IMG/VR virus record: IMGVR_UViG_3300024252_000005 | Reading direction: 5' to 3' (one strand) | From: a virus | Taxonomy: Duplodnaviria > Caudoviricetes | Length of the DNA stretch: 64,000 nucleotides | Translations under genes and position numbers: made by a program | In this document: positions 10,063-35,500 of the stretch, piece by piece | Numbering within the stretch: position 1 is the first letter of the stretch | Layout: each line of letters begins with the position of its first letter | The notes under the pieces: generated by a model | The model's input: the letters and a program-made list of their open reading frames with translations, nothing else | The model's database searches: none | Told to the model about the DNA's origin: nothing

Positions 10063-10335
10063 TTTTTTCTTTAAAAAGCATGTTGTTTTAATTTATATTA
10101 TTATTATATAATGTGATTCAAATATTTACACATTATATAATAATTAATTTTTCTTAGCTAAACTCTTTCCCTTAATGTGCAACGGCTTGTCAGAAAAGTC
10201 AATGTACTGAATATTGTTATTCATTTCTGAATATTCTTTGTATGATAATACAATACCCATCGATGTAAGCATTATTAGTGATGATAAATAATACGTAACT
10301 AACTTGTTTTTCATTTTTATTCTTTCTATGTAGAT

Positions 10336-10641
10336 TTAATCAATGCTGTTAAGATTGTCAATATGAAGCTGTAGAATATCGTTCCAATAAAATTCTTCTT
10401 GTCCTGACCCAAAATTGACTACAGTAATTTCTGCAGAGCCATAGTCTATTTCAAATGTATACTTAATCTCACTATCAGAAACAATTTCTGTATAAAAGTA
10501 TTCTGGTAAATCATTATTTTCAAAAGTCTCGCTAGACATATTAACGTTAAATCTTTCTTCTAACTCTGGAATAATAAACAATGCTCTTTTTTTAATATCC
10601 ATTTTATTCTTAACCCTTTTGTCTTGAATGATATATATCAA
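10336..10641 (-). CDS. hypothetical acidic protein
   Basis: ORF in operon. Confidence 0.55.
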   Translation of the reverse strand: MIYIIQDKRVKNKMDIKKRALFIIPELEERFNVNMSSETFENNDLPEYFYTEIVSDSEIKYTFEIDYGSAEITVVNFGSGQEEFYWNDILQLHIDNLNSID

Positions 10642-10885
10642 TATCTTTCCAATTTAAATTGTTTTCTTTTATTGTTAGTACTATCATTTTTGCTTTATCG
10701 TTTAAAATCAACATCTTGTCATCTAGTGGGTTTATTAAATAATTAAGCTTTCTAACACTTGCAAGAAAATTTAGCAAGTATTTTTTTGTAATTACAGTAG
10801 ATTCGTTTACTTCTTTAGATAAGCAAACACCAGTATCAGTAAGAACATGAATTTTAATTGTATTCAACTTTAAATTTGCTTCCAC
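10610..10885 (-). CDS. hypothetical protein
   Basis: ORF in operon. Confidence 0.55.
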   Translation of the reverse strand: MEANLKLNTIKIHVLTDTGVCLSKEVNESTVITKKYLLNFLASVRKLNYLINPLDDKMLILNDKAKMIVLTIKENNLNWKDIDIYHSRQKG

Positions 10886-10935
10886 TTACAAAACATATAT
10901 TTCTCCTCTTTTAGCAAAAACGAACTATAAACAAG

Positions 10936-11121
10936 CTATGCTTCAATTCCGTAATAGTAATAAATAATTCGTGTAATAGATATAAACCAAAAACAAATCG
11001 ACATGCCTGCAACAAGCAAGCTATCAGTTTTTATGAACATATAACCTCCAAAAACATAACCTAAAATAAAAGCTATCATCCAATAAGGACTAATTACAAC
11101 AACGTCAACATTTTCAATCAT
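10936..11121 (-). CDS. small two-TM membrane protein
   Basis: Two hydrophobic segments; SD and promoter upstream. Confidence 0.6.
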   Translation of the reverse strand: MIENVDVVVISPYWMIAFILGYVFGGYMFIKTDSLLVAGMSICFWFISITRIIYYYYGIEA

Positions 11122-11182
11122 TATGCCTCCTATATGTACTAATTATAATATTAATATTAACAATTTTACACGTATTAGATCA

Positions 11183-11578
11183 TCAAGAGTAAGTATCTAG
11201 CACTGTTGATGGGTAATATTCGTCAGTGTAATCTGTACCAATCATTAATATAACTTCACCATTATTTGATTTTCTCAATACCCAACCACAAAAAACTTCA
11301 TATTCTTCTGTTTTTACTTCATTCCACTTTTCTAAATAAGAATCTTCATCTATGTCATTGTTAATATTGCAATCTTGATCTCCATATACAACCCAGTCTA
11401 GCTGACTCCTATTACCATCATAAGTATCTTCTATTACCTCCCAAACAATGCTTGCAAATTTAAAAGACATGTTGGCGCTAGAAAAACCTCTATACTTAAA
11501 AGTAATACCAGACAAACTTTTAAAATGATCAAACATTGAATTATTTACAGAATTATCTATTCTCATTAGCACGCACAA
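11183..11578 (-). CDS. hypothetical acidic protein
   Basis: 131-aa ORF. Confidence 0.55.
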   Translation of the reverse strand: MCVLMRIDNSVNNSMFDHFKSLSGITFKYRGFSSANMSFKFASIVWEVIEDTYDGNRSQLDWVVYGDQDCNINNDIDEDSYLEKWNEVKTEEYEVFCGWVLRKSNNGEVILMIGTDYTDEYYPSTVLDTYS

Positions 11579-11715
11579 TCACAAGCCGGTTGACGAAACG
11601 GAACGTTTACATGGTAAGTCATTTACTCAATCAACCAATTAACGTATAAAAGATAAACAAGTGTTATTAACAAACAAACAAAAAGCTCGTCATGTGTTAA
11701 ATATAAAAACTTCAA

Positions 11716-12090
11716 TTAGTCCTCTTTTCTGACTGTATAGCATAAAACTCTATGATTTAAGAATTCTTTATGCATATTATCTAAATAATCTATTTTTATA
11801 CTTGAGTTTTTTCTAGAAAAATATCTCTGGCATGTTATCTTGTTTTTATTGTAGTTCATGTCAAAAAAACATCTATTACTCTCAAAACATCTCGCTAATA
11901 CAAAATCTTTATTGTGAGACAATGTTTTGTTAATCTCTATAAAGCTAAACTCGTTTGAATTGTATCTTTTGATATTGTTACAGGTAATTTCAATATATCC
12001 TGTATTTTTTAGTGTACTTATGACATTTTGATCATCAATAGAGCAAGATATATTAAAAGCTGTAAATAATAATATTGATTTTTTTAACAT
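11716..12090 (-). CDS. putative lipoprotein
   Basis: MLKKSILLFTAFNISC lipobox-like; paired Cys. Confidence 0.6.
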   Translation of the reverse strand: MLKKSILLFTAFNISCSIDDQNVISTLKNTGYIEITCNNIKRYNSNEFSFIEINKTLSHNKDFVLARCFESNRCFFDMNYNKNKITCQRYFSRKNSSIKIDYLDNMHKEFLNHRVLCYTVRKED

Positions 12091-12097
12091 GAAATCC

Positions 12098-12406
12098 TTA
12101 GGATACTGTTTGGTTTGTGTTCTTTTTTAATTCTTTAAATCTAAAGTTGAATTTTCTTTTTAGTATGCTTAAGTTTTCTTTGCTTCCAACATATAGCCCA
12201 ACTTCATCATTATTGTAAATTACAAACTTTACTTTTATGTTTTTTTCAATATAAGCTTTTTGTCTTTTAACTTCTTTAATAATTTTATTCGCATTGAAAG
12301 ATGCTAAGAAAAGCCTGTCTGTTTCTTTTTTATTATCAACTATTTTTTTTAGCTGAAGCATAAAGTCTTCATAGCTTAAAGAATTCATTAGTATTTTATC
12401 AATCAT
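12098..12406 (-). CDS. hypothetical protein
   Basis: ORF in operon. Confidence 0.55.
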   Translation of the reverse strand: MIDKILMNSLSYEDFMLQLKKIVDNKKETDRLFLASFNANKIIKEVKRQKAYIEKNIKVKFVIYNNDEVGLYVGSKENLSILKRKFNFRFKELKKNTNQTVS

Positions 12407-12656
12407 GATGTGCGCAGCTAATCATCCTTTTATTTACTATCTCATATTCGTTTGAGGAACTAATACAAAATCCAGATTTTAGATAGATATCAGTACCACC
12501 AGATATTCTATTAATCACACTGTTCTTAGAATCAGGATCTATAAATCTTTCTTTCCTAATTAAAGGTGTATAATACGCAATAAAGTCAACATTAATCGTT
12601 ATCGGTGTATCATCATCATATCTTTGAACAGTAATAGTTTTCATTAATAAAGTCAC
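12399..12656 (-). CDS. hypothetical protein
   Basis: GTG start with AAAAGG SD. Confidence 0.55.
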   Translation of the reverse strand: MTLLMKTITVQRYDDDTPITINVDFIAYYTPLIRKERFIDPDSKNSVINRISGGTDIYLKSGFCISSSNEYEIVNKRMISCAHHD

Positions 12657-12700
12657 CTTTTGTCTTAAATTATATATTACTTTATTTATTGTACATTATA

Positions 12701-12913
12701 TTATAATATTTGTGAATATAAATTGCACGTCAATAACAGCTTTTCCTGGCCAATTCGGTTTAAAAATAAAAAGACAGTACAATATATTACTAAAGAAGCA
12801 AGTATAAATATCTTTGCGTTAGCGTTTGTTATGACAGAAATTGCGACTGTAAACATACATAAAGCGGGTATTGAAGCTGCAACAACTGTTACAATATCAT
12901 AGTAGTCAAACAT
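12701..12913 (-). CDS. small two-TM membrane protein
   Basis: Two hydrophobic segments. Confidence 0.6.
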   Translation of the reverse strand: MFDYYDIVTVVAASIPALCMFTVAISVITNANAKIFILASLVIYCTVFLFLNRIGQEKLLLTCNLYSQIL

Positions 12914-12934
12914 TCATTTTCCTTTTTAAATACT

Positions 12935-13321
12935 TTATCCACCGTATATATCGTTGTATCTTCTAGCATCAGCAAATCCAGGCGTAGACCAAGCAATCAT
13001 TGACTCAAGACTTCTTGCAACTGCAACATGACCATTACTCCAGCTTCTTGGAGGCGGTGGATATTGAGATACAATCATTGCAAGTAAAGCTTTGAGATAA
13101 GGTCTTTTAGAACCACATTCTTCTTTCCAATTACTTTTAATTACTTTACTTATAATAGAATCATAATAATAAGATGCATCAAAGTTTTTGTTGCTGCATT
13201 CTTTTACAAGCTCATCAACAATTGGCTGTAGTTTTTTCTTGCTAAAAGATATTTCTACATAATTAGAAAACCATGGTGAAGGATGAGTATCAAATTTGAT
13301 TGTAAATAAATCATTAGTCAT
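12935..13321 (-). CDS. hypothetical early protein
   Basis: Directly behind the promoter copy at ~13385. Confidence 0.7.
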   Translation of the reverse strand: MTNDLFTIKFDTHPSPWFSNYVEISFSKKKLQPIVDELVKECSNKNFDASYYYDSIISKVIKSNWKEECGSKRPYLKALLAMIVSQYPPPPRSWSNGHVAVARSLESMIAWSTPGFADARRYNDIYGG

Positions 13322-13396
13322 TGTAATGCCCTTGATATTGTTGCCTTATGTTATCATTATAATATAATTGTCATCTAAGTTACACTATAAAAGTCT

Positions 13397-13681
13397 TTAC
13401 TCGTCACCTGTAACAATCATTGTGCTATCTGTATAACACGGTCCGTGTGTCTTGACTTCAATATTGTTTACGTCGGTAAACCTCCAAACACTGTTTCTAT
13501 AACCAGTAGCACGCTCCCATTCTGACTTAACTAAATGTATCCTTATTATATGGCCCATAGGATGATTACAAACTACTTCATATACATCATCTTCATGTCT
13601 GTTTTTGTAATCTAATTTGTCGCTGTTTTTGCAAGATATTAAAAGCTGAAATGATAGAAAGATCAAGATGCATTTTTTCAA
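13397..13681 (-). CDS. putative lipoprotein
   Basis: MKKCILIFLSFQLLISC lipobox-like. Confidence 0.65.
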   Translation of the reverse strand: MKKCILIFLSFQLLISCKNSDKLDYKNRHEDDVYEVVCNHPMGHIIRIHLVKSEWERATGYRNSVWRFTDVNNIEVKTHGPCYTDSTMIVTGDE

Positions 13682-13761
13682 GTTATACCCATTTAAACAT
13701 TAAATTGTTTTTCTCATAAAGTATTATATAATACTTTTAATTTAATTACAAACTATATGTG

Positions 13762-14016: not shown

Positions 14017-14025
14017 AAGATCTCC

Positions 14026-14403: not shown

Positions 14404-14559
14404 TTTAAATCCTATGAATGGCTTGTTGTTATGTTATATTATATTTTGATGTGATCTAAGTTACACGCTCAGACGTATGAAATCGCTACCTGAAGTCATA
14501 ATAACTCTAGTCTCAGCTTCACATAACTCATCTAACTCTACATACTGAACGTAATAGTT

Positions 14560-15213: not shown

Positions 15214-15306
15214 ATTATACCCTTTTAAATGAATGATTGTTTATGCCTTATGGTTTATTATAATATAAACTTGATCTAAGTTACACGCTTGAGGACCTCT
15301 TTGGTT

Positions 15307-15930: not shown

Positions 15931-16056
15931 ATTTAATGTCCTTTTTAAAAAATTTGTTGTTGTTGCCTTATGGTTTATTATAATATAATGTTGAACTTAG
16001 TTACACGAATATAAAATCATAATATGATTACCTTTAACGTTAGTCATAGATTACTC

Positions 16057-16275: not shown

Positions 16276-16353
16276 TGTAAGCCTTTGATTTGAATTGTTG
16301 CCTTGTGATATTATTATAATATATTGTTTATATAAGTTACACGATATTAGATT

Positions 16354-16701: not shown

Positions 16702-16808
16702 TTTAACTGTCTCCTTAAAAGCATGGCATGTATCACTTCAATTACATTCAAAGCCACTTTAGCATTTTCAATATTCTTTTTTCTAATCATGTAACATCTA
16801 TAAGCTAA

Positions 16809-17231: not shown

Positions 17232-17524
17232 TATTATCTCGCTTTCATGTTTTATTTAGGATGTGAGTGTTTTTAGTTATAAACTCTTTTTAAGAGCTTT
17301 CGATTACCGTTTTCTAGGACACCCCAGACTGAACCATTCCAAAGGTTAATCATGTCTGCACTTGCAAAACTGCTGAAAGTCATTCTCTTAAATCTTCTGC
17401 CGGAAGTATAACTACCCGTTACGTGAAATTCTTTGAAATACATATTATTATCCTTTTGGATGAATGATTGTTGTTGCCTTATGGTTTATTATAATATAAT
17501 ATTGAACTTAATTACACGTATAAT

Positions 17525-18870: not shown

Positions 18871-19223
18871 TTTTAATTCCTTGTTTGGTTTGTTGCCTTA
18901 TATTAATATTATAATATAATTTTTATCTAAGTTACACGATTCAAAATCTATCTAAATCTTTCTTTCTTTTATTACCATATATAATATCCTCAAGCTTGAC
19001 GTGAGGTTACCAAATACACTTAATTAAGTCACCTATCTTGTTCATGACTAATTGATATGCGCTAATTCATAATATATGCAATAAACTATCCCGACGCAGC
19101 AAAATGTTAACGCATAGTCAGGGTTATAAGTTATTAGTTTAATTAAACCATATATAAAGCTAAGAAGCAAGATGCCATATAGACTTAATACTAAAAAGTT
19201 CTTCATCTTAAAGCACCTGTATA

Positions 19224-19424: not shown

Positions 19425-19732
19425 CTATAAGCTCCTTGCTCTTCTACTAGTAGTACAAACTATCATTATTGTCTTGCTGTCGCTCAGTGACCAAAGATTC
19501 ATAAGCTAGCTTACCAGCTAATGCCCACGACTCAGAGTCACAATCCATAGGGTCAACGTATATATTGGCATGCTGCCAAAATAAATCATAGCTGAACTCC
19601 TTTGAAGCTTTATTCTTCCAGATGTCATAAATATTTAAGTAAGTGTTGGGTTTAATTGTAGATAAAGTTAATCCTTTCTAGCCTGTTATATGTTATATTA
19701 TAATATCAATGATTGCAAATATGCACGTTAAG

Positions 19733-20131: not shown

Positions 20132-21187
20132 TCAGAAGATATCATCATTCAAATCATCATCAACACTAACGAAGTCTTCATAAACATTCTGAAGATTCTC
20201 TGGATCTAAACGATCTAACACAACTTCAGAATCGTCAACAACCTCTTCAGAAACTAGCACGTCGATTTCATCTCCAGCTGCTGATACTTCATCCTTTACA
20301 ACAACCTCAAACTTCAAAGATCTAGGCGTCCCACCCATAGATCTGATTGTCTCATCAAGAAGCTCAACGGGAATCAAGTGAAGCTGCTTAGGATGATCAG
20401 ATGTAGATCCACCAGTTCGAACCTCAAATGCTGCTGATTGCTTGCCATCTTCTGATACACGAGCTCCAGAATAACGGATCCAAGCTCCTCCCTGCATCTC
20501 AATTAGCGTCTTATAATCATCACAATCGACACCTTCTGATTCGAGCTGAGCAATAGTAGGATTAATCTCAGATAACGCAACTATCACCCACTTTGCTCCC
20601 TTCCCAGAAAAACGAGCCTTAAGCTTAGATCTCCAATCAGATCCATCAGCTGCCTTTCCAGACCTATGACACAAAGCCTTAACATTATCATTAATCAATG
20701 TATTAAGATGCATCTTAAAAGCTGTTACCTTAGGATCTCCACCCTCAGCCAAAAAACTCTTAAACATGCTCACAATCATATCTTGCTGAGACATAACTTC
20801 CTCATTATTATTTAGATTATCAACAGTAAAGCCAGAATCATTATCTGCCATAGAAATCTCCTCATTTGAACTAGGGGCTGAAATAGTTAAGTTGTCCATT
20901 TGATCCTCCAAAGGATTGATTGTTTGTGCCTGATGGTTTATTATATCAATGTCTTTATCTAAGTTGCACGCCTCATTAATCACCTCCCAGTTATTAACTA
21001 ACCAACCATACTCATCACTCAAAGCATCAGTAATCTGAAATTCGTCTGTGTTCTCAGGATCTTCAAAGTAATCGCTGAGATTAACTTCAAGAGGAATACC
21101 ATTATCAAAAGCAAACTTATCATGCTCTTCATCATAATAATCTACTGTAGTAGGCAAATCAAATTCCCATTGTATTTTAATCTTCAT
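20132..21187 (-). CDS. read-through fusion of family D domain and family C protein (family C also has its own promoter, SD and ATG at 20899)
   Basis: N-terminus matches 28037 and 29912; C-terminal part matches 30335 and 34022; promoter copy inside at 20931-20970. Confidence 0.8.
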   Translation of the reverse strand: MKIKIQWEFDLPTTVDYYDEEHDKFAFDNGIPLEVNLSDYFEDPENTDEFQITDALSDEYGWLVNNWEVINEACNLDKDIDIINHQAQTINPLEDQMDNLTISAPSSNEEISMADNDSGFTVDNLNNNEEVMSQQDMIVSMFKSFLAEGGDPKVTAFKMHLNTLINDNVKALCHRSGKAADGSDWRSKLKARFSGKGAKWVIVALSEINPTIAQLESEGVDCDDYKTLIEMQGGAWIRYSGARVSEDGKQSAAFEVRTGGSTSDHPKQLHLIPVELLDETIRSMGGTPRSLKFEVVVKDEVSAAGDEIDVLVSEEVVDDSEVVLDRLDPENLQNVYEDFVSVDDDLNDDIF

Positions 21188-21279
21188 ATTATTTAATCCT
21201 TGTTGGATGTGGGGTGGTGATGGTTTATTATAATATATTGTAGGTTGTTGTTACACGAAATACTTTTTATTAAATCTAA

Positions 21280-21687
21280 TTATTTATTTTTTTCTATCCA
21301 GATATCATCAAATTCAACATTGCTTATGTCACAGCAAATAATGTTGAATTTGATGATGGTTACAGCACTTTCCCAATTTACTCTTTTTAATCCTAGACTG
21401 CATGCTGTAGTAAAAAGCCTTTTTCTTGATTCTATGACATTATCTTCCATAATATCTATTCCATATAAGCTTCTTAAAGATTCTATTATAGAGTTACCGT
21501 GAAATACTTTTTTCTTTAAAATCTCTACTAAAAAGTTTCCTGTTCCGCAAGTAGGCTCTAAAAAACTTTTGTTAAGTTTCCAGTAGTTAGAAGGAATATT
21601 GTTTAACATTTTTTCTATTATAAACTCAGGCGTAAAAACTTCACCTAAATTATCTACTCTTTCTTTTGATTTAATTAAGCTTTTCAT
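21280..21687 (-). CDS. N6-adenine DNA methyltransferase, SAM-binding (motif I) half
   Basis: GEVFTP, FLEPTCGTGNF, LYGIDIMEDN; no NPPY. Confidence 0.75.
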   Translation of the reverse strand: MKSLIKSKERVDNLGEVFTPEFIIEKMLNNIPSNYWKLNKSFLEPTCGTGNFLVEILKKKVFHGNSIIESLRSLYGIDIMEDNVIESRKRLFTTACSLGLKRVNWESAVTIIKFNIICCDISNVEFDDIWIEKNK

Positions 21688-21691
21688 TTCA

Positions 21692-22843
21692 TTAAACCAC
21701 AAACTTATTATTTAGTATAAAGTCAATTGTATCTTGTGTTAAATTGTATTTAGAAAACAACATCTGATCTGTCCACTTTACGTTCCAGTCAACAATAGGC
21801 GTTGAACAAAACTTAGGATGAAAGTCTCTTTTCTTTATAAGCAGCATAGCTTTTGCAAAACGAGTATCTAAATAACTAACAAAATTCTCAGCCTCATTTT
21901 TGCTTTTAAACTCAAAATTATATGTTCTTGATAGACATTTATCTCCTGCGCTCATAACTTTTATCTTAGACTTACTGTAGTAAGTAAAAAAGTCATCTTT
22001 AAAAAACTTATTTTTGTCACCAACATTTCCTCTAAGTTTAGGAAGACCAACGTAGAAATAATTTGTTTTTTCTACATCGCTTTTTTTTAGCTTAATACTC
22101 TTCAAGCTTTTACTTAATTCTAAGTTGAAAAACATATCATGTAGCTGTTTATAACCTCTTAAACCTGTAAAAACATCTGGAGACATTGTTTTTTTGTTTA
22201 TTCCAGTTATCTCGTTTGAATAATCAACACTTGATGTGATGTGGTTTTTGTCAAAATATGTAATGCAGACTAATGATTGTATTTTAGCATCTGGAAATGA
22301 AGTTGATGAATTTACTATTTCAATACTAGACAAAGGCAAATCAATTTTTTCTAAATGCTTCTTGTATATGTTCTTTTTTCGCTGATCTAGAAAAGGATTA
22401 GAAGGTTGTATAAATGTAAGTATGTCACATTTTTTACTTAACTTGGATAAAATTTCTAGATGGAAATTCTTCTTATAAGGCGGGTTTCCTAAAATAACAT
22501 CAAATTTTGGCATTTTCTCTTCTTCCATATTTAACATAAACTCAATTAGATTTCTTTTCCATCTTGAACTTGTAATATTGCATTCTTTAACAGCATAAAT
22601 CTTTGATTGATGGTCTGCTAAAAAACTTATAGCGTCAGGTGAAACATTGAAATCTTCTACAAGAGAAATTACAATTTCGGGATTGAAAATAACAAGAAAC
22701 TTTTTCTTCTCAGACAATTTATTAATTTTAGAAATCATTTTTTTTATTAAAGAAAAAGTTGTGTGCTCATTTTGATCAGCACCCTCAAAAATTTGCAAAG
22801 ATCTTTCTGTTAGAAGCTTTCTTGTATAATCAATTTTGCTCAT
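21692..22843 (-). CDS. Eco57I-like methyltransferase catalytic/TRD half
   Basis: FDVILGNPPY motif IV; no FxGxG motif I. Confidence 0.75.
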   Translation of the reverse strand: MSKIDYTRKLLTERSLQIFEGADQNEHTTFSLIKKMISKINKLSEKKKFLVIFNPEIVISLVEDFNVSPDAISFLADHQSKIYAVKECNITSSRWKRNLIEFMLNMEEEKMPKFDVILGNPPYKKNFHLEILSKLSKKCDILTFIQPSNPFLDQRKKNIYKKHLEKIDLPLSSIEIVNSSTSFPDAKIQSLVCITYFDKNHITSSVDYSNEITGINKKTMSPDVFTGLRGYKQLHDMFFNLELSKSLKSIKLKKSDVEKTNYFYVGLPKLRGNVGDKNKFFKDDFFTYYSKSKIKVMSAGDKCLSRTYNFEFKSKNEAENFVSYLDTRFAKAMLLIKKRDFHPKFCSTPIVDWNVKWTDQMLFSKYNLTQDTIDFILNNKFVV

Positions 22844-22910
22844 GTCGTTCCTAATTGTTAAATTATTGATATTACTTTTTATTATATACTTTTATTATAA
22901 GTGTTACACT

Positions 22911-23561
22911 TTAAGTTAACTCATTGTAGAAGTTTTTCCAGAAGTTGCTATTATTGTTTCCAATGACTTTTTTAATTTTATCGTAGCCAAATACGGTAAT
23001 GCTTTCATGATACATGTGTTTATATGTATTTATATTTAAACCTTTACAAGTTGTAAATAAATACATTTGAGAATCTCTGAAAGCTTTGCTTGTCATTGTA
23101 TAAGCAACAAAATTAGAGATATGATCTTTGTTTGCTTCTAGTAAACTAGTTACATTTGACCTATACTTGCATTGAACTGTTACGCTTCTATCACTACCGT
23201 TCATCTTACCAACACCATCAACACCCCAATCTTCACCGAACTCAGAACTATCCCAAGGATGATAATCAGAAATTCCAATTCTAGGATCGCTGCTAAATGT
23301 TTTAATAAAATACTCTACAAAAATTTCAAATGCTGAACCTTTGAATTCATCAATAGCGTTGCTTCCGTATATATTGTGTGTAGTAAAGTTATCTTCGACT
23401 AATTCTTTATCACACTCAATTATCTTTTTTATATTACGCATAAAATCTTTTAACGATAAAACATTATGACACAATTTTTTTTTAAGAGACAAAGGGCAAG
23501 ACAACTTAAAATCATGATCTAACATACTAAATCCTTGTTCCTGCAGATACGCATTTTTCAT
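22911..23561 (-). CDS. Mrr-like PD-(D/Q)xK restriction endonuclease
   Basis: GSAFEIFV, DWGVDGVG, VQCKY. Confidence 0.7.
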   Translation of the reverse strand: MKNAYLQEQGFSMLDHDFKLSCPLSLKKKLCHNVLSLKDFMRNIKKIIECDKELVEDNFTTHNIYGSNAIDEFKGSAFEIFVEYFIKTFSSDPRIGISDYHPWDSSEFGEDWGVDGVGKMNGSDRSVTVQCKYRSNVTSLLEANKDHISNFVAYTMTSKAFRDSQMYLFTTCKGLNINTYKHMYHESITVFGYDKIKKVIGNNNSNFWKNFYNELT

Positions 23562-25047
23562 ACATCAAAGTGAATATGTCTATTTTGCTGTTTTTCTTTG
23601 ATTGCTCTATGATATTACTTAGTTCCTCTTCTTCTATATCTTTTTCTATTAAATGTTTTGCATCATCTAGTTTCTTTTGAACATTTTTCCTATGCTCTTC
23701 AGTTGATATTAGATCACATAAGTCTTGTTCTTCTTTTAAATTAAACAATTCTTTTGTATCTTTTACAAACTCTCGTGAAATATCAAATTCTTCGTTTAAA
23801 GGAAAACCGCCTAGTCTTAAAGCTATTAAATGCTTTTGAACATTAACCCAGTCATCCCTGTTTTTATTCCAAGCAACAATTGTTACTAAAGCATATTCTT
23901 TCTTATTTATACCTTTTACCTTATAAAGCCTTAAAGATCTTCCAACTGTTTGCAACAACTTACAAGTATTCATAGCTCTTAATATTACAACTCCAGTGAT
24001 CCCCGGAACATCAATACCTTCAGACAATATATCATAATGGAATATTAGACAGTTTTTTGATTCTTTTACTTCTTCTAAGAATTCATTTCTATTACTTATT
24101 TCTTTTCCATTTTTTGTTGCCTTTATTTCTTCTCTAGAATGAATAATAAATATATCATGATTAGGCAGAAATTCTTTGAATGATTCTTGACAACTCAATA
24201 CTTCTTTTATTTCACTAGATCCCGACATTGAAAATAAAGTTTTGCTGAATCCTAACATTTTATTGAATTTTTTGTTATGATAAACAGCAATTTTTTTACA
24301 TAAATCTAATGTTTTGTTTTTTCTATCTTCATCTGAAGTTTCTAATATATGAATTCTAGGCTTTACAATAATTTCTTTTTCTATTAGGACAGAAGCTTTT
24401 ACTTCATAAATTCTAGGCCCAAAAACACTTTCGTTATTTAAACCAAGCCCACAATCACTTTCTGTCCATTTTTCTGTAGCTGTAAAACATATCTTTTTAT
24501 TTGCAGATATTTTGCTATAAACATTATGATACTTTTCATGAACTAGAAATTGGCTTTCGTCTGCTATCATAACATCAAAAAGAATATCAGTTAGTTTGTA
24601 ATAGCTGTGATAAGTACTGAAAACTATTACATAATTTCCTTTTCTTTTTTGCAATTCAATAAATTCTTGCAGAACGCTACTTTTTGTTGTACTACACTCC
24701 GAGTATTTGCTTTTTCCCTTAGGAACATAATGTTCGCCACTATGGAAAGCTGCAGCAACCCAGTTGTCAATTCCAATCCACTCTCTAAAACCTTTTTTTT
24801 CTTGAATAGAAGATCCTAGGCCTACATGCTGTTGCCCTAAAGCTATGCGATGAAATAAAACTAGACTTGCACCTACATTGTTTTCTTTTTTAATTCCAAA
24901 CTCGTCAATTACCAAGCTTTCAATTCTTGACTTGCCTCCGCCAGTAGGAATTACAACTCTTGAAGAAACTTTTTTTTCGTCTAAGTAAAAGTTTCTAATC
25001 GCTAAAAGGCAGTCTTCTTGATGTCTATAGAGGGGAAGCGTAGTCAT
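23527..25047 (-). CDS. SF2 helicase/translocase (type III Res / ISP-like)
   Basis: PTGGGKS, IADESQ, TAT, LSEGIDVP, QTVGRSLR; start MTTLPLY at 25047. Confidence 0.85.
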   Translation of the reverse strand: MTTLPLYRHQEDCLLAIRNFYLDEKKVSSRVVIPTGGGKSRIESLVIDEFGIKKENNVGASLVLFHRIALGQQHVGLGSSIQEKKGFREWIGIDNWVAAAFHSGEHYVPKGKSKYSECSTTKSSVLQEFIELQKRKGNYVIVFSTYHSYYKLTDILFDVMIADESQFLVHEKYHNVYSKISANKKICFTATEKWTESDCGLGLNNESVFGPRIYEVKASVLIEKEIIVKPRIHILETSDEDRKNKTLDLCKKIAVYHNKKFNKMLGFSKTLFSMSGSSEIKEVLSCQESFKEFLPNHDIFIIHSREEIKATKNGKEISNRNEFLEEVKESKNCLIFHYDILSEGIDVPGITGVVILRAMNTCKLLQTVGRSLRLYKVKGINKKEYALVTIVAWNKNRDDWVNVQKHLIALRLGGFPLNEEFDISREFVKDTKELFNLKEEQDLCDLISTEEHRKNVQKKLDDAKHLIEKDIEEEELSNIIEQSKKNSKIDIFTLMYEKCVSAGTRI

Positions 25048-25240
25048 TTTTTTACCTTCGTCTTTGTTTTTCTTTTTAGTAAATAAATTCCTGATAAGAC
25101 TTTTAAGCAATATATACTCAACTTTCAATACATAAACAATATTTAATCGTTAAAATATTTTAACAATTAAATTAAAATTATTAATTCCTATTTACATTAG
25201 TATTATAACAACAAATGTTTTTCATTACACGAATATTAAC

Positions 25241-27243: not shown

Positions 27244-27365
27244 ATCATCCACCTTGTGTGTGTGTTGTTGTTGATATATTATATCAATGATATTATGTAT
27301 TTGCACGTCGGGTTGATGACGCAGAGGGTTGTAGCCTCGAGGCTGCTTTTTCCCTGGGTGAAGAC

Positions 27366-27925: not shown

Positions 27926-28036
27926 ATTGTTAGCCTTGTAATGTTATTGTAAAAGTTGCGACCAGATCTACGCAAAAGTAGATCAAAAGCTGTTTCTTCT
28001 TATTTAGGATGACACGTTAGCGTTGATATACGCGAG

Positions 28037-28252: not shown

Positions 28253-28396
28253 GTTGATCCTTGATTGTTTGGGTAGTGGTGATGGTTTATTATAATATGA
28301 TATTAAGTTGGATTACACGTTAGAGCTGTCGACCAATATTTTTACCTAATCTATGCTTGAATAGTTAAAGTAGTGTTAGCTATATGTGTAACGATA

Positions 28397-28708: not shown

Positions 28709-28828
28709 ATTAAAGCTTTCTTGGTTGATTGATTTTTTGATGTTGCCTTATGATATATTATACACAACGAATTAACTAGTTTACACGCACAGAGTGCGAC
28801 GATGCCAGCCGTTGCCAGGCCAAGTCAG

Positions 28829-29239: not shown

Positions 29240-29318
29240 GATGGTCCTTATTGGATGAGCGGTGTTGATGGTTTATTATAATATACGTGTTATTTAAGTT
29301 GCACGACCTAGTTATAAC

Positions 29319-29585: not shown

Positions 29586-29673
29586 GATGATCCTTATTGG
29601 ATGAGTGGTGGTGATGGTTTATTATAATATGGAAGTTAACTTAGTTACACGACGTGGGTTGGCGAGAGGATTG

Positions 29674-29859: not shown

Positions 29860-29911
29860 GTTGAACCTTATTGTTTGGGTGGTGATGGTATATTATAATA
29901 TGATTATTAAC

Positions 29912-30223
29912 TTAGTTGCACGAAGGCTCGTGCCATGCGTAGTTATTGATGAGCCAGCCGAATTCGTCGCTGAGAGCATCAGTGATTTGCTCAGGTGAAA
30001 CACTTCGTGGGTCTTCAAAGTAATCAATGAGATCGACTTGTTGTGGGACACCGAATAACATTGAAACGTCTCGTTTATACCCAGCTAATCGCTCGGGATC
30101 TTCCAGGATGACCTCGATGTCTCCTTCAGATAGACCAAGCATCTCTTGAGTTTGTTCATCCTGTTCGATGTCAAACTCCCAGTCAATGTTAATGATTGTT
30201 GATTGTGTGTTTGGTGTTTCCAT
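29912..30223 (-). CDS. small acidic protein, paralog family D
   Basis: Start METPNTQ; IDWEFD..VDLIDYFEDP..QITDALSDEFGWLIN; stop codon lies inside the next promoter. Confidence 0.75.
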   Translation of the reverse strand: METPNTQSTIINIDWEFDIEQDEQTQEMLGLSEGDIEVILEDPERLAGYKRDVSMLFGVPQQVDLIDYFEDPRSVSPEQITDALSDEFGWLINNYAWHEPSCN

Positions 30224-30334
30224 TATATTAAATCCTTTGTTGGATAAGTAGTGGTGATGGTTTATTATAATATATGTGTTATCTAAGTTACACGAATAGG
30301 GTTGATGACGCCGCTGGTTGAACGGCCAAGACAA

Positions 30335-31141
30335 TTAAAAGATGTCGTCGTTGAGCTCATCGTCGGAGTTATCTTCAAGATCTGGATCTGCAAGACCTTC
30401 GGCTGCTAGAAATGCTTCCCATTCCTCAGGGTTGTCTGATGTTGGAGCTTCGTTTAGTTCTTCAAAAGGATCAGAATCTGTTTCTTTTACGTTAGGTCCA
30501 ATGACAACGTCAGCACGAGTTACAGCGCTTTTTTCCTTAGGCTCAGGCTTAACATCTTCAGGCTTAACATCTTCAGATTCAGCTTTTGCTGAGCTACTGG
30601 ACTCAAGGCCGAGAGCATGAGGGGTTTTATTCATTGGGCGAATTGCCTCATCAAGGACATCAATTGCGATATAGTGAAGTTGCTTAGTATGATCAAGTTT
30701 AGACCCACCAGTTCTGACTTCAAAAGCTGCACAGTTTTTCCCATTTGAGACTCGAGGTGCAGAAAATCTGATCCAAGCAGCACCTTTAGCTTCAGTGTTA
30801 GTTATGTAATCACTGCAATCAATGCCTTGAGATTGAAGTTCAGTTATAGTCAGACTGATCTCTTGAAGAGAAACGAAAACCCATTTAGCACCGGTGCCAG
30901 AAAACTTTGCTTTGACATCGCGTCGCCAAACTGCTTCGCCTTCTCCGGTCTTGCCTGATCTTGTTGTTAGATGCTTGATGTGACTGTCAATCAGTTCGTT
31001 AAGATGCTTCTTGAAGCCAGTTACGGAAGCTTTGTGTCCTTCAGCAATGAAGTTATCAAAAAGACCGCGGATCATTTCGTCGTCGTACTTATTCATTTCA
31101 GTTCCTTGACTGTTTGATTGTGGGAGAGAATTGTTATTCAT
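30335..31141 (-). CDS. family C protein with acidic tail ending NDDIF
   Basis: VTGFKKH..SGK..KFSGTGAKWV..AWIRFS..AAFEVRTGGS; internal EDVKP x2. Confidence 0.8.
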   Translation of the reverse strand: MNNNSLPQSNSQGTEMNKYDDEMIRGLFDNFIAEGHKASVTGFKKHLNELIDSHIKHLTTRSGKTGEGEAVWRRDVKAKFSGTGAKWVFVSLQEISLTITELQSQGIDCSDYITNTEAKGAAWIRFSAPRVSNGKNCAAFEVRTGGSKLDHTKQLHYIAIDVLDEAIRPMNKTPHALGLESSSSAKAESEDVKPEDVKPEPKEKSAVTRADVVIGPNVKETDSDPFEELNEAPTSDNPEEWEAFLAAEGLADPDLEDNSDDELNDDIF

Positions 31142-31224
31142 ATTGAATCCTTATTTATTGTTGGTTTGAAGGTGTGCCTTATGGATGTATTATATGTTAT
31201 GTTGATTGAAACTTACACGCGGTA

Positions 31225-31431: not shown

Positions 31432-31546
31432 TTGAATCCTTGTTGAGTGTTTGTTTGTTGTTGTCCTTACTTATATATTATATAATAAGGAATAACTTCG
31501 TTACACGAAGTGTCGACGACCTAGGTGGCTAACCCGTCAAGGAAGA

Positions 31547-31960
31547 TTACTGAACGAAGTTTCGTTTGATCTCTTCTTGATTAGCGATGTCAACGAGCTG
31601 TTTGCTGTGCTTAAGTGCAATCTTTCGTGCTCTGAACATAACAGACTTTCCTTGAGCATAGTGACCTAGAACGCGCTCGCATAATGGGTGTCGAAGATCC
31701 TTTTGTGGGTAGCGAACTTCGTTGCGATCGTTCATCCCAAGGAGCCACCGAGCCATGCGAGTCCCAGCTTTAGCGTCAGCAGCTGAGAAGCCGACAGAGT
31801 TCTCATACTTGGTCGTTGAAGTCTTAACTTCATCAGAAGTCTGCAAATTGAAGAGTCGCACGATAGCTCTCATCACCGCGATGTCGTTGTCGTTTAGAAG
31901 TTGATCGATCTCAGATCGTGTCCATATGCGTAGTGTCTTTGTTGATGTCTTGTCAGTCAT
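31547..31960 (-). CDS. hypothetical phage protein
   Basis: Own promoter ~32040. Confidence 0.7.
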   Translation of the reverse strand: MTDKTSTKTLRIWTRSEIDQLLNDNDIAVMRAIVRLFNLQTSDEVKTSTTKYENSVGFSAADAKAGTRMARWLLGMNDRNEVRYPQKDLRHPLCERVLGHYAQGKSVMFRARKIALKHSKQLVDIANQEEIKRNFVQ

Positions 31961-32040
31961 AGTTAATCCTTGATGGAGTGTTGAAATGTTGTTTTGGACC
32001 TTATGTTCTTATTATATATCAATGCAAGTTAAGTTGCACG

Positions 32041-32238
32041 TTATAGGTAACTCTCTGTCTCTGTGATGTATGTGTTGATTGGAGTGAGTTGCTCACCAGT
32101 ATGCAGTGTCATCCACTTATCCTGAACGTGAGTATATCCAGAACTCTTAAGCTCTTTAAGCTTATTAACACGTTGCTCAACGTCGTGGGGAAGATTAATG
32201 TTTTGATCATCTTGATCGTAGTGGACATGAAATACCAT
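32041..32238 (-). CDS. hypothetical early protein
   Basis: Own promoter ~32302; stop abuts the next promoter. Confidence 0.65.
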   Translation of the reverse strand: MVFHVHYDQDDQNINLPHDVEQRVNKLKELKSSGYTHVQDKWMTLHTGEQLTPINTYITETESYL

Positions 32239-32322
32239 GTTAAGTTCCTTTAGTGATATGGATTATGGTTTATTATAATACCTTTATTAACTGAGTTGCA
32301 CGCCAACTCGACGACCCAGAGC

Positions 32323-32847
32323 CTATGCAGGCTGTGTAAGATCCTCGTTGCGTGCCTTAACATCCTCTAGGAAATCAAGGATCTTCTTCTCATGGCCGTC
32401 AATGTGCGAAGTATCGAGACCACCAGAAGCCTGAACATCACGCATCTTGTCGAGGCGAAGCTGAAACCATTGGAATCCGTCAAGCAAGATAGTCTTTGGT
32501 GAAATGTTTACCGGAGTAAACTCTTCGCTCATATCGATGTCTTTGTTGTTCATGTGATCCCATTTGTTGACACCGTGATAGTGACCCAAGATGTCTTCAT
32601 AATCAGTACAATTCGACCAACCTGAGTTCCAGTAAACGTAGCCATGAACTTCTTTCATGAAAGCGTTCGCATCGTTGAATGACTTGCGAAGACCCGGATC
32701 AAGTGACTCGATGAAGTTGTCACGGATATCTCTGAGCTCTTGCGTCTCTCGGAATCGTTCACGTGGTGTCTCAATTGAGCTCCACTTTTCGTTATACGTA
32801 TTGTGGTTATATGTAATTGTATCTCGAACTTGTTGTCTCGTTGGCAT
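32323..32847 (-). CDS. hypothetical protein
   Basis: AAGGA SD, 174 aa. Confidence 0.7.
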   Translation of the reverse strand: MPTRQQVRDTITYNHNTYNEKWSSIETPRERFRETQELRDIRDNFIESLDPGLRKSFNDANAFMKEVHGYVYWNSGWSNCTDYEDILGHYHGVNKWDHMNNKDIDMSEEFTPVNISPKTILLDGFQWFQLRLDKMRDVQASGGLDTSHIDGHEKKILDFLEDVKARNEDLTQPA

Positions 32848-33110
32848 GTCAGTTTCCTTTAGTGAAGTGTTTTACGAATAGGCAGAGCGATAGAGTCATC
32901 GTACGACTTAAGAAGCTTTCGAACTTCTTGACGATCAATACGCGTGAAAAGTCGCAACTCATTACGACCAACTGCTGTATAACCAAGTCGTTTATTTGTA
33001 TGAGATCGCGAACCGAGGCGATGAGAGTGTCGATTAATTGCTGCCAAGTCACTGTCCTTTGTTGATGTTGATTATGGTTTATTATACCACGTCGTTAAAC
33101 GTATTACACG

Positions 33111-33335
33111 TCAAATGATCTTGGTTGTCGGGTTCTGATCGTCCATCACACCATCACAAATCTCTCCTGGGTCGAATTCGTAGAGATGAAAACTCCCGTC
33201 GCTCATAACAACTGTTATTACGTTACCACGCGTCGTCACAGTCTTTACTTCACGAGGATTCACGTTCAATTCGTCACACACTTCTTGAAGGTCGATCTCT
33301 ACTCGAGTTGAGTAAGTTATTTGAATCGTTGACAT
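33111..33335 (-). CDS. hypothetical early protein
   Basis: Own promoter ~33413. Confidence 0.65.
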   Translation of the reverse strand: MSTIQITYSTRVEIDLQEVCDELNVNPREVKTVTTRGNVITVVMSDGSFHLYEFDPGEICDGVMDDQNPTTKII

Positions 33336-33448
33336 AGTTAACCTTTCGAAACGTCGTTAATGATTGGTTGTCCTTACATCTATATTATAGACTAAGGTAT
33401 TGTTATTTGCACGCCGAGCTCGACGCTACAAGCCGTAGCCACTGCGAA

Positions 33449-33868
33449 TCAGTAACCCATGACTTCGTTGTAAGCTTCACACCCACCCATCATACCAGCC
33501 TCCATCGCGATCTCACGTCTCCAGTCTTCCATCCAGTCATCGTCATCACCATCCTCCGTCGCTTCACGAACAAGCTTGATGTCGTCAGTGTCCCAAGGAT
33601 TGAACTTTTGACCATATCTCACACCGCCGTTGAGGAGCTCCATATTCTTTCCCATGGCGTTTTCCTTGTCCTCCCAGTCTTCGCCTTCGTAAACCCAGAT
33701 CGCGTCACCATCACCACACCTCGCAAGACTCACCAACTCTTCGAGAGTATACTCTCTGCCCACCTCGAGAATAACCGTGTCACACCAGTCGTCGTTGTGA
33801 ATTGGGTCGACGTTGCTCCCAGTAGTCATTAAACATTTGATGATTCCCATAGTAAAACCTTTCGTCAC
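33449..33868 (-). CDS. hypothetical acidic early protein
   Basis: Own promoter ~33929. Confidence 0.7.
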   Translation of the reverse strand: MTKGFTMGIIKCLMTTGSNVDPIHNDDWCDTVILEVGREYTLEELVSLARCGDGDAIWVYEGEDWEDKENAMGKNMELLNGGVRYGQKFNPWDTDDIKLVREATEDGDDDDWMEDWRREIAMEAGMMGGCEAYNEVMGY

Positions 33869-34021
33869 GTTGTTAATGTTTGTTTGTCCTTACATCTATA
33901 TTATAGACTAAGGAATTGATTGTTACACGTCGTTTCGACGACGTGGAGCCTTGTCACGGCGAATCAGATCTTTGTAAGATCGATCCTATCGAAGCGAGGC
34001 CAAACGACCTAGGTCTTTGAA

Positions 34022-34801
34022 TCAGAAGATGTCATCGTTGAGGTCGTCGTCGTAGTCATCCTCGAACTCGTCGTTACTGAGGCCTTGTGATGAGAGGTAA
34101 GCTTCCCAAGCTTCAGGATCATCAGAGTCAGGGACATCACTCGGAGTCTCGTCGTCTGGTGTCTCCACCTCGTCAACGACTTCAGTTGTCTCGGTCTCCT
34201 CAGCTTCAGGCTCTTTGGCTTCGCTCGGTGAGGCAATGACCTCGAGCTTCTCTGAGTGGGGAGTTCCTCCTAATGGAGAGATCACATCGTCAAGTCCAAC
34301 AGCAGGTAAGATAAGCAACTGCCTTTGATGATCATCTTTGGATCCACTTGTTCGAACTTCGAAGGCTGCCATATGAGCCTTGCTTTTAGGGTCGACGCGA
34401 GGTCCTGAGTAGCGAACCCATGCGTAGCCAGCTTGCGTCGTCCATGCCTTGTAGGCTGAGCAATCGATGCCATCCTCCTCGAACTCGTCAAGACTTGGGT
34501 TAACGACGTCAAGGGCAACTTGAACCCACTTCGCTCCGCGACCAGCAAACATTGCCTTCTGCTCACGACGCCAATCGGAGCCAGATCCATTGGCAGTCTT
34601 GCCAGATCCTGAGCAAAGGTGCTTGATGTCAGTCTTGATGAGACCATCAATATGCTTCTTGAAAGCAGTTACCTTAGGATCGCCTCCAGCTGCAATAAAC
34701 TGCTCGAACAAAGCTTTAATATGATTAACTTCTGTCATTGTATCCTCAATTGTTGGGTTTGATGTTGGGATGTTTTGGGTAGATTGAGTATCAGTTGTCA
34801 A
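34022..34801 (-). CDS. family C protein with acidic tail ending NDDIF
   Basis: GGDPKVTAFKKH..GAKWV..AWVRYSG..AAFEVRTSGS; TTG start with AGGAG. Confidence 0.8.
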   Translation of the reverse strand: MTTDTQSTQNIPTSNPTIEDTMTEVNHIKALFEQFIAAGGDPKVTAFKKHIDGLIKTDIKHLCSGSGKTANGSGSDWRREQKAMFAGRGAKWVQVALDVVNPSLDEFEEDGIDCSAYKAWTTQAGYAWVRYSGPRVDPKSKAHMAAFEVRTSGSKDDHQRQLLILPAVGLDDVISPLGGTPHSEKLEVIASPSEAKEPEAEETETTEVVDEVETPDDETPSDVPDSDDPEAWEAYLSSQGLSNDEFEDDYDDDLNDDIF

Positions 34802-35195
34802 AATGACTCCTAAATGGTTGGGGTGATGTTTTATTATAATAGGATTAGATTAATGTTACACGATAGATGATGGACCTGTTGTTTCCTTAATAATTAACTT
34901 TGATTCATATTTAACTCCTTTCCTCTAGTACTTTTTATTATACCATCTGTCTCAATTAGTTACACGATCCAACTCGACGACCCGAAGGGCTGTCAACGCA
35001 AGTTCTCGAGATCAATGATGATCGATGCAGCTAAGAAGAGAATAATCAAGGTAAGCATATGATGCCTTTCAACTTAAGGCTCTAACATGAGGACGAAGGC
35101 CTCGTTTTTGCCTGACCTGTTATTATATAACCTTCAGGCGATAGTTACACGATTAATACGCCGGACGCCAGAGTTCTCACATCATCACCAAGAAA

Positions 35196-35500
35196 CGTGT
35201 AACTTGGTAATTCAACTGACCGGGAAACCAACGATGTCAAAGATCTGAAGGGAAGAGGCATGCCTCTTTTGGAACCACCGTTCCTATCCCCCCTTATGTT
35301 CTTATTATAATATGCCACGTCGCCGGTTACACGTAGGCCCCGGGGCTCTAGAGGGCCCCTTTTAGGCCCCCTCTGCGTGTATCTAAAACTCAGTGGGACT
35401 CCGGCCCAGGGGGGGTTTAGTCCGCTACCAGCATTTTCTTCCCGGGAACTTTTCGAAAAGCTTTTAGGTATCACATTTGAATACATCTAATTTGTGAAAA
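35196..35500. other. GC-rich palindrome cluster at the divergent transcription junction
   Basis: AAGAGGCATGCCTCTT (35253-35268), CCCCGGGG, CTCTAGAG, TTCCCGGGAA (35439-35448), CTTTTCGAAAAG (35449-35460); inverted promoter half-site at 35196. Confidence 0.7.

Follow-up and report, generated by a model that had tools for sequence, protein, structure and literature searches.

A lineage-specific promoter repeated before the small genes of an uncultured marine T4-like jumbo phage, and its probable second role as a point of cassette exchange

Gene Content and Organization of the Array

The window, a stretch of 64,000 nucleotides from IMG/VR record IMGVR_UViG_3300024252_000005, belongs to an uncultured marine T4-like jumbo phage of ca. 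255 kb; it contains an array of 33 promoter copies and ca. 55 small genes (10103..35333) that probably constitutes the hyperplastic pre-late gene region of this phage. The array and all features located below lie on the minus strand. A gp23-type capsid gene, detected in the syntenic relative G001 and four further relatives (Gp23, PF07068; E 1e-64 to 1e-67), identifies the lineage as T4-like. Five of five syntenic IMG/VR contigs terminate 0.1–2.3 kb into the array, and its gene content and order differ strongly among relatives. Each unit consists of a promoter, an A/C-rich leader, a Shine-Dalgarno site, and then one to a few small genes, mostly without known relatives, and carries all sequence signals needed for its own expression; the distance between promoters has a median of ca. 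690 nt (range 104–2321). The initial annotation had assigned a promoter to nearly every one or two small genes. The first three promoters precede no ordinary genes, and promoter 27307 (27278..27307; promoters are named by their upper coordinate) is followed by six genes before the next promoter at 25231.

At the array head, promoter 1 (35304..35333) precedes a conserved non-coding first transcript of ca. 150 nt, a candidate small RNA (35152..35298); promoter 2 (35122..35151) is followed by a hydrophobic micro-ORF of 21 codons (34993..35058), and promoter 3 (34937..34966) by a micro-ORF of 4 codons here and 25 codons in relatives. Downstream of promoter 4 (34833..34862) lies a B-family gene (34022-34801), which together with 20132-20905 is a paralogue of the 268-aa B-family gene (30335..31141) behind promoter 31189..31219; the latter gene has 159 metagenomic homologues. 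The A-family gene (29912..30223) has a paralogue at 28037-28252 and is missing from the variants L012 and X22 that are described below. Members of both families are combined in a fused ORF (20132..21187), where a translated promoter (20940..20970) lies between A-family residues 1-67 and B-family residues 129-297; a fused form of 358 aa occurs also in L013. A low-GC variable module (21280..25128), missing from the L013 and X22 variants, codes for a ResIII/helicase (23527-25128), an Mrr-type nuclease (22911-23525), and pieces of an N6-methyltransferase (21280-22843). Paralogous cassettes stand in differing orders, and no recombinase gene was found among the array proteins. A stand-alone sigma-70 region 4 protein of 82 aa, a candidate reader or modulator of the promoter box, is encoded at 53571..53819.

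Promoter Motif, Geometry and Leader

The exact motif CGTGYAA-N16-20-TATAAT was matched 30 times, always on the minus strand, compared to an expectation of 0.04 matches derived from dinucleotide shuffles; 29 matches lie at 11.1–35.3 kb and one at 2.8 kb. When any first base or one box change was allowed, the array yielded 33 copies (10103-35333), which bears out the more than 30 minus-strand CGTG(T/C)AA-N~18-TATAAT cassettes counted initially. The relaxed motif also located two copies outside the array, one at 2753..2782 with a 318-aa gene downstream (1758-2714), the other with a TGTGTAA box upstream of a tRNA cluster (4773..4802); it had no matches on the plus strand (35 minus vs. 0 plus). Variant boxes within the array are AGTGTAA (22881..22910 and 13356..13386), CGTGCAT (19697..19727), and TGTGTAA in the final array promoter (10103..10132); motif matches without further distinction are found at 32272..32302, 31477..31507, 18908..18938, 16313..16343, 15257..15287, 14438..14467, 12700..12729, and 11142..11172. 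By information content, the consensus is CGTGYAAC-N16/17-(at)TATAATAaA.C. As described in the initial annotation, the -10 element is canonical and the -35 element is not TTGACA: all copies have a perfect TATAAT at a spacer of 17 or 18 nt, and the -35 position is occupied by GTGYAA, a 3/6 match to TTGACA.

Transcription probably starts at the CA of a conserved CATAAGG, and the leader that comes next, ca. 35–45 nt long, is rich in A/C and poor in G; promoter and leader together amount to ca. 100 nt per copy. In most units the ATG start codon follows 21–56 nt past the -10 element, after an AAGGA-type ribosome site. The suggestion that downstream sub-types cluster by position survives as a weak trend (Spearman -0.11, permutation p 0.03). 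Upstream ORFs extend to or into the next promoter, as had been noticed before: three stop flush with the box (promoters 33081..33110, 32011..32040, and 22910), the A-family gene has its stop codon inside promoter 29892..29922, 11 nt into the box, the fused ORF at 20132-21187 reads through its promoter, and many ORF ends lie 0–20 nt from the next box. The absence of a stem-loop that had been stated for these units was also found here: the 52 nt upstream of the box did not fold better than shuffles (mean z -0.14 vs. -0.21 for controls), and intrinsic-terminator-like sites were not enriched (7 found vs. 10.4 expected). Stem-loops or terminators between units were not found; transcripts would run on into neighbouring cassettes.

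From these sequence features we infer that the copies would fire as promoters, early or mid infection. In other parts of the genome, copies precede unrelated operons, without exception in sense direction. The box is more conserved than sigma-70 would need, as might be the case if the repeat were a binding or recombination site of a phage protein (a site-specific recombinase or a replication/packaging factor) and resembled a promoter by chance; yet this is hardly credible for a repeat that is always oriented as the genes are (35 to 0), stands at a constant distance from ribosome site and start codon, has a perfect -10 element at 17–18 nt spacing, precedes unrelated operons in sense direction, and occurs in an array without a recombinase gene.

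Breakpoints and Joints at Promoter Copies

The array was compared to a ca. 90% identical relative represented by contigs of three separate runs (L012, L013, and L014), which are mutually consistent throughout. Promoter elements, at 13.9% of the DNA, contain 11 of 19 homology breakpoints (P 1e-5), and six of eight events are promoter-bounded on both sides, including that of the 4-kb helicase/nuclease/methylase module. This module has its upstream edge at promoter 25202..25231 and, in L013, its downstream edge at promoter 21227..21257, with promoter 22910 inside; promoters 28757..28787 and 28289..28319 delimit a cassette that variants have lost or replaced, and promoters 29621..29651 and 29275..29305 coincide with breakpoints. 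The tandem promoters 33900..33929 and 33384..33413 bracket a cassette that is present or absent among relatives (its gene, 33449-33850, is missing from L012), and L012 has an additional cassette at promoter 33110. The other eight breakpoints are located outside promoter elements; four of them are hundreds of nt from any promoter (26.1–26.7 kb and 25516), and one, 32864, is 151 nt away.

Contigs with joints were obtained from four other seawater runs, i.e., three DNA runs and one RNA-library run. Joint ends fall inside promoter elements in 18 of 33 cases (P 5e-8; elements account for ca. 14% of the DNA), and both ends do so in 7 of 16 joints, compared to 2% expected. Promoter 33413 provides one such joint end, promoter 17488..17518 is the site of a rearrangement joint, and promoter 30264..30294 forms a hybrid with 29922 in variants; several joints lie within the 17–18 nt spacer and are in register, so that hybrid promoters result. 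In the X22 contig, where promoter 20970 is the downstream deletion edge, the 18 letters between 25225 and 20945 rebuild a box-N18-TATAAT promoter. X22 lacks the same cassettes as L012, L013, and L014, with joints at or within ca. 40 nt of theirs, and one X7 joint equals an X22 joint within 9 nt. Many joints carry new letters between their two sides. A lack of relation between synteny breakpoints and the motif had been named beforehand as a refuting outcome; the result was the opposite, with breakpoints and joints concentrated in promoter elements.

Judged from these contig comparisons, the promoter-leader copies are sites of cassette insertion, deletion, replacement, duplication, and reordering, between phages as well as within natural populations. 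Promoter copies share exact stretches of 20–33 nt and near-identical stretches of 60–120 nt, and exchange would proceed by homologous recombination at such common stretches, as proposed for the promoter-early stem-loop (PeSL) cassettes of T4-type phages. The enrichment could alternatively be a by-product, either of repeat mis-joins during assembly or of illegitimate events filtered by selection, in which case a junction survives only if it lies between genes and rebuilds a promoter. The sequences compared are all short-read contigs, in which repeats of at least 30 nt could cause mis-joins; however, exact matches of at least 30 nt exist in only two promoter pairs of the window (33929/33413 with 30 nt; 17518 and 15977..16007 with 33 nt), one of which flanks the present-or-absent cassette, while joints have formed among many other pairs. 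The selection version gains from the near-coincidence of intergenic and promoter positions: nearly all intergenic gaps of the array are promoters, and consequently the two kinds of position are not fully separable. The by-product reading also draws on events at promoter-free gene boundaries (32347/32864, 17532/18167, 26.1–26.7 kb) and from one junction with only 12 nt of common ribosome-site sequence. The recurrence of the same junctions in separate runs (L012/L013/L014, X22, X7) and the register preserved by joints inside the spacer argue against a by-product of either kind, which we regard as improbable.

Distribution of the Promoter Class and Candidate Readers of the Box

Of 20 related records of T4-like, gp23-type phages with split sigma factors (GC contents of 25–56%), 15 carry the GTGYAA-N17/18-TATAAT class; the strict motif has 140 matches in these 15 records vs. 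2 control matches. Five split-sigma records (G011, G012, G013, G016, and G026) lack the strict motif; G013 has kept the box and pairs it with TAAATT rather than TATAAT. This promoter with its leader is also present in arrays of more distant relatives, exclusively on the gene strand. All 20 records encode an RpoD-like sigma with its -35-reading helix detached as a small protein of its own: the sigma breaks off behind region 4.1, and 40 of 41 loci, with identities as low as 38%, have a conserved helix-turn-helix partner next in line; sigma region 2 retains the RpoD-type -10-reading residues. The sigma gene itself has this promoter 25 nt upstream; a GTGTAA box with an A/T-rich -10 element (N17-18) precedes sigma in most loci with at least 55% sigma identity and in at least three distant loci (L047, L052, and L059).

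The chances are about even that the box is read by the phage two-piece sigma, in which case host sigma-70 would set off the circuit by means of the perfect -10 element. Such a starter would be required by a sigma gene that stands behind its own promoter, which counts against the phage sigma, as do the five split-sigma records without the strict motif and the missing covariation between recognition helix (S or A) and box (T or C). A plausible though doubtful alternative is that these are ordinary T4-type early promoters read by the host primary sigma alone, that the phage sigma serves a later class, and that the odd -35 element is a lineage flavour comparable to T4's own TTTACW. The perfect TATAAT and the 17–18 nt spacing suit sigma-70; the sigma gene lies behind the promoter, as would be expected of an early gene made before any phage sigma exists; the genes served belong to T4-early classes (unknown small genes, ligase, RNase H, deaminase); and published PeSL promoters likewise deviate from TTGACA (PMC4122927). 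Against host sigma alone, no further recurrent promoter class, sigma-70-like or other, was seen that the phage sigma could read, G013 pairs the box with TAAATT, and a box with only a 3/6 match to TTGACA has been kept across phages that all carry the split sigma and span 25–56% GC, and hence probably different hosts. Another reader of the box, such as the region 4 protein encoded alone at 53571-53819, is unlikely.

The fuller form of the phage-sigma reading, in which a two-piece sigma of RpoD-like core and detached region 4.2 protein reads GTGYAA and the unit is a portable homology block, is tentative and falls somewhat short of an even chance. This sigma would drive its own gene and all pre-late genes throughout a large marine clade of T4-like jumbo phages; a gene captured behind a promoter copy would be expressed at once under phage control and be exchangeable among co-infecting relatives, and new, GC-richer cassettes may gather at the array head.

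Implications

Altogether, it is quite likely that a lineage-specific promoter of sigma-70 architecture is repeated before nearly all of the functionally uncharacterized small genes and doubles as a cassette exchange point in the manner of PeSLs. With these results, cassette shuffling mediated by promoters, a process documented in a few cultured T4-like phages, extends to an abundant uncultured group of ocean phages, with population-level evidence from several independent seawater samples. In this phage group, the compact, searchable promoter signature labels the pre-late genes and points to fast-turnover genes with likely host-takeover and anti-defence functions; it also provides a candidate target sequence for the split sigmas of gp23-type jumbo phages, so that the sigma question can be addressed in vitro even with no host in culture.

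Comparison with Known Systems

The closest counterparts are the PeSL cassettes of the T4-like phages RB49/phi1, T4/PST, and KVP40/nt-1 (Arbiol et al., 2010, PMC2839356; Comeau et al., 2014, PMC4122927). In both systems, a repeated promoter, early in PeSLs and putatively early or middle in the array, stands with ribosome site and start codon ahead of small variable genes in the hyperplastic regions of a gp23-type lineage; the repeats are where close relatives differ by indels and replacements, and copy-to-copy homologous recombination is the proposed mechanism. The PeSL-like modular shuffling suggested in the initial annotation is in accord with the T4-like lineage, the sigma-70 geometry, and the concentration of breakpoints and joints in promoter elements. 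Unlike PeSLs, the array lacks the stem-loop/terminator part, has GTGYAA in place of a TTGACA-like -35 element, includes a conserved A/C-rich leader in the repeat, and is denser and longer (33 copies in 25 kb); its promoter class is conserved across a wide split-sigma clade and also precedes the sigma gene. The early promoters of T4, which depend on host sigma-70, resemble those of the array as many strong, near-identical copies with (near-)perfect -10 and lineage-specific -35 elements that serve small host-takeover genes without terminators in between; the array box is further from TTGACA, and T4 lacks an RpoD-like sigma.

The host-takeover module of Bacillus phage SPO1 consists of about two dozen small early genes, with a strong promoter and ribosome site for each gene or pair, and its promoters are canonical for host sigma-A. 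The array shares the compact small genes, singly or in pairs behind their own promoters; the SPO1 block is not known to be a hot spot of recombination. Lambdoid morons and integron arrays resemble the array in that modular units are gained and lost between conserved flanks and vary in order. Morons, in contrast, carry a terminator and are scattered; integron cassettes are promoterless and moved by an integrase at attC, whereas each array unit has its promoter, and neither a recombinase among the array proteins nor an attC-like or conserved folded site was found.

Two-piece sigmas are known as SigO-RsoA in B. subtilis and as the split sigma of Tn916 (bioRxiv 10.64898/2026.10.01.756105), and gp23-type jumbo phages have 'minimal' and RpoD-like sigmas (PMC7824862). 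As in these systems, the phage sigma stops after region 4.1 with a separate small helix-turn-helix protein next to it, and a stand-alone region 4 protein is encoded as well. The published work compared here links no promoter class to the sigmas of gp23-type jumbo phages (PMC7824862); the tie between the GTGYAA promoter class and the split sigma is proposed here from their co-occurrence.

Promoter Motif and Layout

The array of predicted promoters is real and strongly non-random: in a pattern search of the window, exact CGTGYAA-N16-20-TATAAT occurs 30 times, on the minus strand only, against 0.04 in shuffles, which bears out the minus-strand array of promoter copies described in the initial annotation. 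When the first base is left free or one mismatch to the box is tolerated, 33 copies are found within the array (10103-35333) and extra ones outside it at 2753-2782 and 4773-4802; the plus strand of the window has zero copies of this relaxed motif. TATAAT is perfect in all copies and is separated by 17 or 18 nt from the box at the -35 position, whose best spelling is CGTGYAAC. Conservation goes on downstream of the -10 as TATAATAaA.C, followed by a CATAAGG-type motif; the leader is A/C-rich and G-poor and ends in an AAGGA-type ribosome site, with the start codon 21-56 nt from the -10 in most units. Leader sub-types clustered by position had also been proposed; the leader itself is present, and the positional clustering of its sub-types is weak. 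Promoter copies follow each other at a median spacing of ~690 nt, and some ORFs end flush with the next box (n=3) or inside it (n=1), as noted at the outset; ORF 20132-21187 (minus strand) runs through one complete promoter.

The proposed lack of a stem-loop was upheld by two measures: the 52 nt 5' of each box show no stronger folding than shuffled sequence (mean z -0.14 vs. -0.21 in controls), and intrinsic-terminator-like sites are not enriched (7 vs. 10.4 expected). A scan for canonical sigma-70 promoters likewise showed no enrichment (57 vs. 64 expected). As a separate candidate, the T4 late promoter class was considered; TATAAATA is not enriched (19 vs. ~21 expected), and therefore no late class is claimed, the copy upstream of 53819 included.

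Source Phage and Array Gene Content

This DNA, with a GC content of ~30%, comes from a T4-like marine jumbo phage that has not been cultured. Cultured phage records contain no megablast match to 12 kb of the array; a protein identical to a member of the B family, a paralogous gene family of the array, was found on a 255,678-bp contig, and window positions 35-50 kb are syntenic with five IMG/VR contigs. A T4 gp23-type capsid gene is present in one of these five contigs and in four further relatives. Scans of the array proteins against Pfam, PHROG, and PADLOC returned almost no names outside a 4-kb block with matches to a ResIII-type helicase, an Mrr-type nuclease, and N6-methyltransferase pieces. 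This block (21280-25128, minus strand) has low GC, with the methyltransferase split over two overlapping ORFs, and resembles a restriction-modification or anti-restriction module; the window phage carries it, and two population variants lack it. Locus searches of viral contigs with the array helicase and the B-family alignment as queries found nothing, Rfam yielded three tRNAs only, and a search for the promoter with its leader in species genomes, meant as a clue to the host, gave ten single, chance-level matches in unrelated bacteria.

The B-family paralogues (30335-31141, 34022-34801, and 20132-20905, minus strand) have an acidic C-terminal tail, ..DDDLNDDIF, reminiscent of the tip at the C-terminus of bacterial SSB; neither Pfam nor PHROG matches the family, and most of its 159 metagenomic homologues are located on short contigs. 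Elsewhere in the window, the gene at 1758-2714 (minus strand), which encodes 318 aa and follows a promoter copy, is listed with a Gad2 (PF26128) match in a precomputed table, and a 288-aa gene (47334-48200) weakly matches a nucleotide cyclase.

The head of the array (26000-36000, compared with 10000-26000) has 40-46% GC against ~30% for the genome, and GC declines from head towards tail; head genes reach a GC3 of 0.58 and have more C than G in the coding strand. The GC-rich head is common to all close relatives (L001-L004 from the syntenic contigs, and L012 from a ~90% identical relative) and is therefore not a one-off import. The first promoter leads into a predicted ~150-nt transcript (35152-35298, minus strand). 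Six relatives keep its first 40 nt, which include a GGAAC..GTTCC hairpin, almost unchanged, and its 3' helix shows compensatory changes; conserved GC-rich hairpins lie directly upstream (35340-35500, minus strand). The divergent junction may comprise a small RNA together with a regulatory region. Behind promoters 2 and 3 are tiny hydrophobic ORFs of 21 codons (34993-35058, minus strand) in the window and 25 codons in relatives (L001, L003, L004); the one behind promoter 3 is shortened to 4 codons in the window phage.

Cassette Turnover

Several minus-strand array genes are paralogues: B-family members at 34022-34801, 30335-31141, and the second half of 20132-21187, and A-family members at 28037-28252, 29912-30223, and the first 67 residues of 20132-21187; further paralogue pairs are 16354-16701 with 28397-28708, and 15307-15930 with 28829-29239. 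The order of promoters (P) and A- and B-family genes is P-B-P-A at 31 kb vs. P-A-P-B at 21 kb. The arrays of more distant relatives carry NGTGTAA-N17/18-TATAAT with a leader as in the window, on the gene strand only; gene families common to these arrays and the window are arranged in scrambled order.

L012-L014, three other-sample contigs of a close relative, match window positions 19-35.6 kb at ~90% identity, in colinear blocks interrupted at promoter copies. With the promoter element defined as box -10 nt to +95 nt (13.9% of the DNA), 11 of 19 distinct breakpoints fall inside elements (P ~1e-5), and promoters bound both sides in six of eight events. Among these promoter-bounded events are the presence or absence of single cassettes (33449-33850, 29912-30223, 29319-29585), an additional cassette in L012 at promoter 33110 (promoters are named by their upper coordinate), one replacement (28397-28708), and the entire 4-kb module, flanked by promoters 25231 and 21257.

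Contigs from four further seawater runs, three of DNA and one of an RNA library (X22), were mapped to 16000-35900; joint ends lie in promoter elements in 18 of 33 cases (P ~5e-8), in an array where almost all intergenic gaps are promoters, and both ends do so in 7 of 16 joints (~2% expected). Breakpoints are tied to the motif in both comparisons, as the initial annotation had suggested, with every sequence compared being a short-read contig and some events located at gene boundaries without a promoter. In one variant, 18 letters between 25225 and 20945 re-form a box-N18-TATAAT promoter; exact identity of at least 30 nt is found in two promoter pairs only, and junctions were seen again in separate runs. 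Given these variant joints, the array locus has at least three structural alleles. All five syntenic IMG/VR contigs end 0.1-2.3 kb within the array, which fits a polymorphic region rich in repeats; metagenome assembly breaks systematically at the array. In X22, a 6.1-kb contig over 26.7-35.1 kb begins 13 nt past the -10 of promoter 35151, and a second contig continues across untranscribed upstream DNA; this library was set aside as evidence of transcription or its start, since contigs cannot show starts.

Sigma Factor Genes and the Reading of the Box

The 82-aa protein encoded at 53571-53819 matches Sigma70_r4 (E 3.9e-10). This stand-alone region 4 protein has an N-terminal Cys/His cluster, and its gene is convergent with an Hc1-like histone-type gene (PF07432), the pair spanning 53366-53819. 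The sigma gene was reached by a contig walk of four exact-protein matches, via the phage's own 255-kb contig and then an other-sample contig linked by an identical SNase protein. Its 250-aa product comprises regions 1.2, 2 (RpoD-like), and 3 and stops just past region 4.1, and a gene for a 92-aa helix-turn-helix protein comes next; tblastn of the sigma against cultured phages gave mostly bacterial-type rpoD matches and no close cultured relative. The truncation and the partner are kept in 40 of 41 sigma loci of viral contigs, down to 38% identity. A CGTGTAA-N18-TATAAT copy lies ~25 nt upstream of the sigma gene, and further copies, always in sense direction, precede further operons, among them those of ligase and RNase H. 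Most loci with at least 55% sigma identity, and at least three of the distant loci, have GTGTAA upstream of sigma, followed at N17-18 by an A/T-rich -10. The sigma-gene promoters (17204-18224 in locus L021; loci L022-L060) have a conserved TAATTATTGA-type spacer, often with TTGACA, that is missing from other promoter copies and may give the sigma gene an additional site of control.

Over whole records, the strict motif has 140 matches (2 in the control) in 15 of 20 phages with split sigma factors, that is, an RpoD-like protein plus a separate small helix-turn-helix partner, at 25-56% GC; one record pairs the box with TAAATT, and an unsplit-sigma phage has zero matches. Because the promoter is conserved across phages of such different composition, a phage-encoded reader is favored, and there is about an even chance that the phage's two-piece sigma reads the box after a start by the host. 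Three points speak against it: a sigma gene that sits behind its own promoter requires host sigma-70 as starter, five of the 20 split-sigma records lack the strict motif, and the Ser/Ala of the partner's recognition helix does not covary with T/C at box position 4. That host sigma-70 alone reads the box is a somewhat less likely possibility. Other readers are improbable; the stand-alone region 4 protein is widespread, occurring in four of five records checked, and does not discriminate between readers. The array uses a promoter class specific to one clade of T4-like marine jumbo phages, those with split sigma factors.

Comparison with PeSL Cassettes

In the promoter-early stem-loop (PeSL) cassettes of T4-like phages, a stem-loop precedes a sigma-70-like early promoter, ribosome site, and start codon; these cassettes are concentrated in hyperplastic regions, at indel breakpoints, and their excision as mini-circles has been demonstrated (PMC2839356, PMC4122927). 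The array resembles PeSLs in context, promoter-to-start architecture, and breakpoint association, and differs by the absent stem-loop, another -35, an added conserved leader, and higher density, which makes it a PeSL variant and not a PeSL member; the initial comparison with denser, stem-loop-free PeSLs therefore stands. The array is best understood as a stem-loop-less, PeSL-like series of promoter-leader-gene cassettes that would both express and shuffle small accessory genes.
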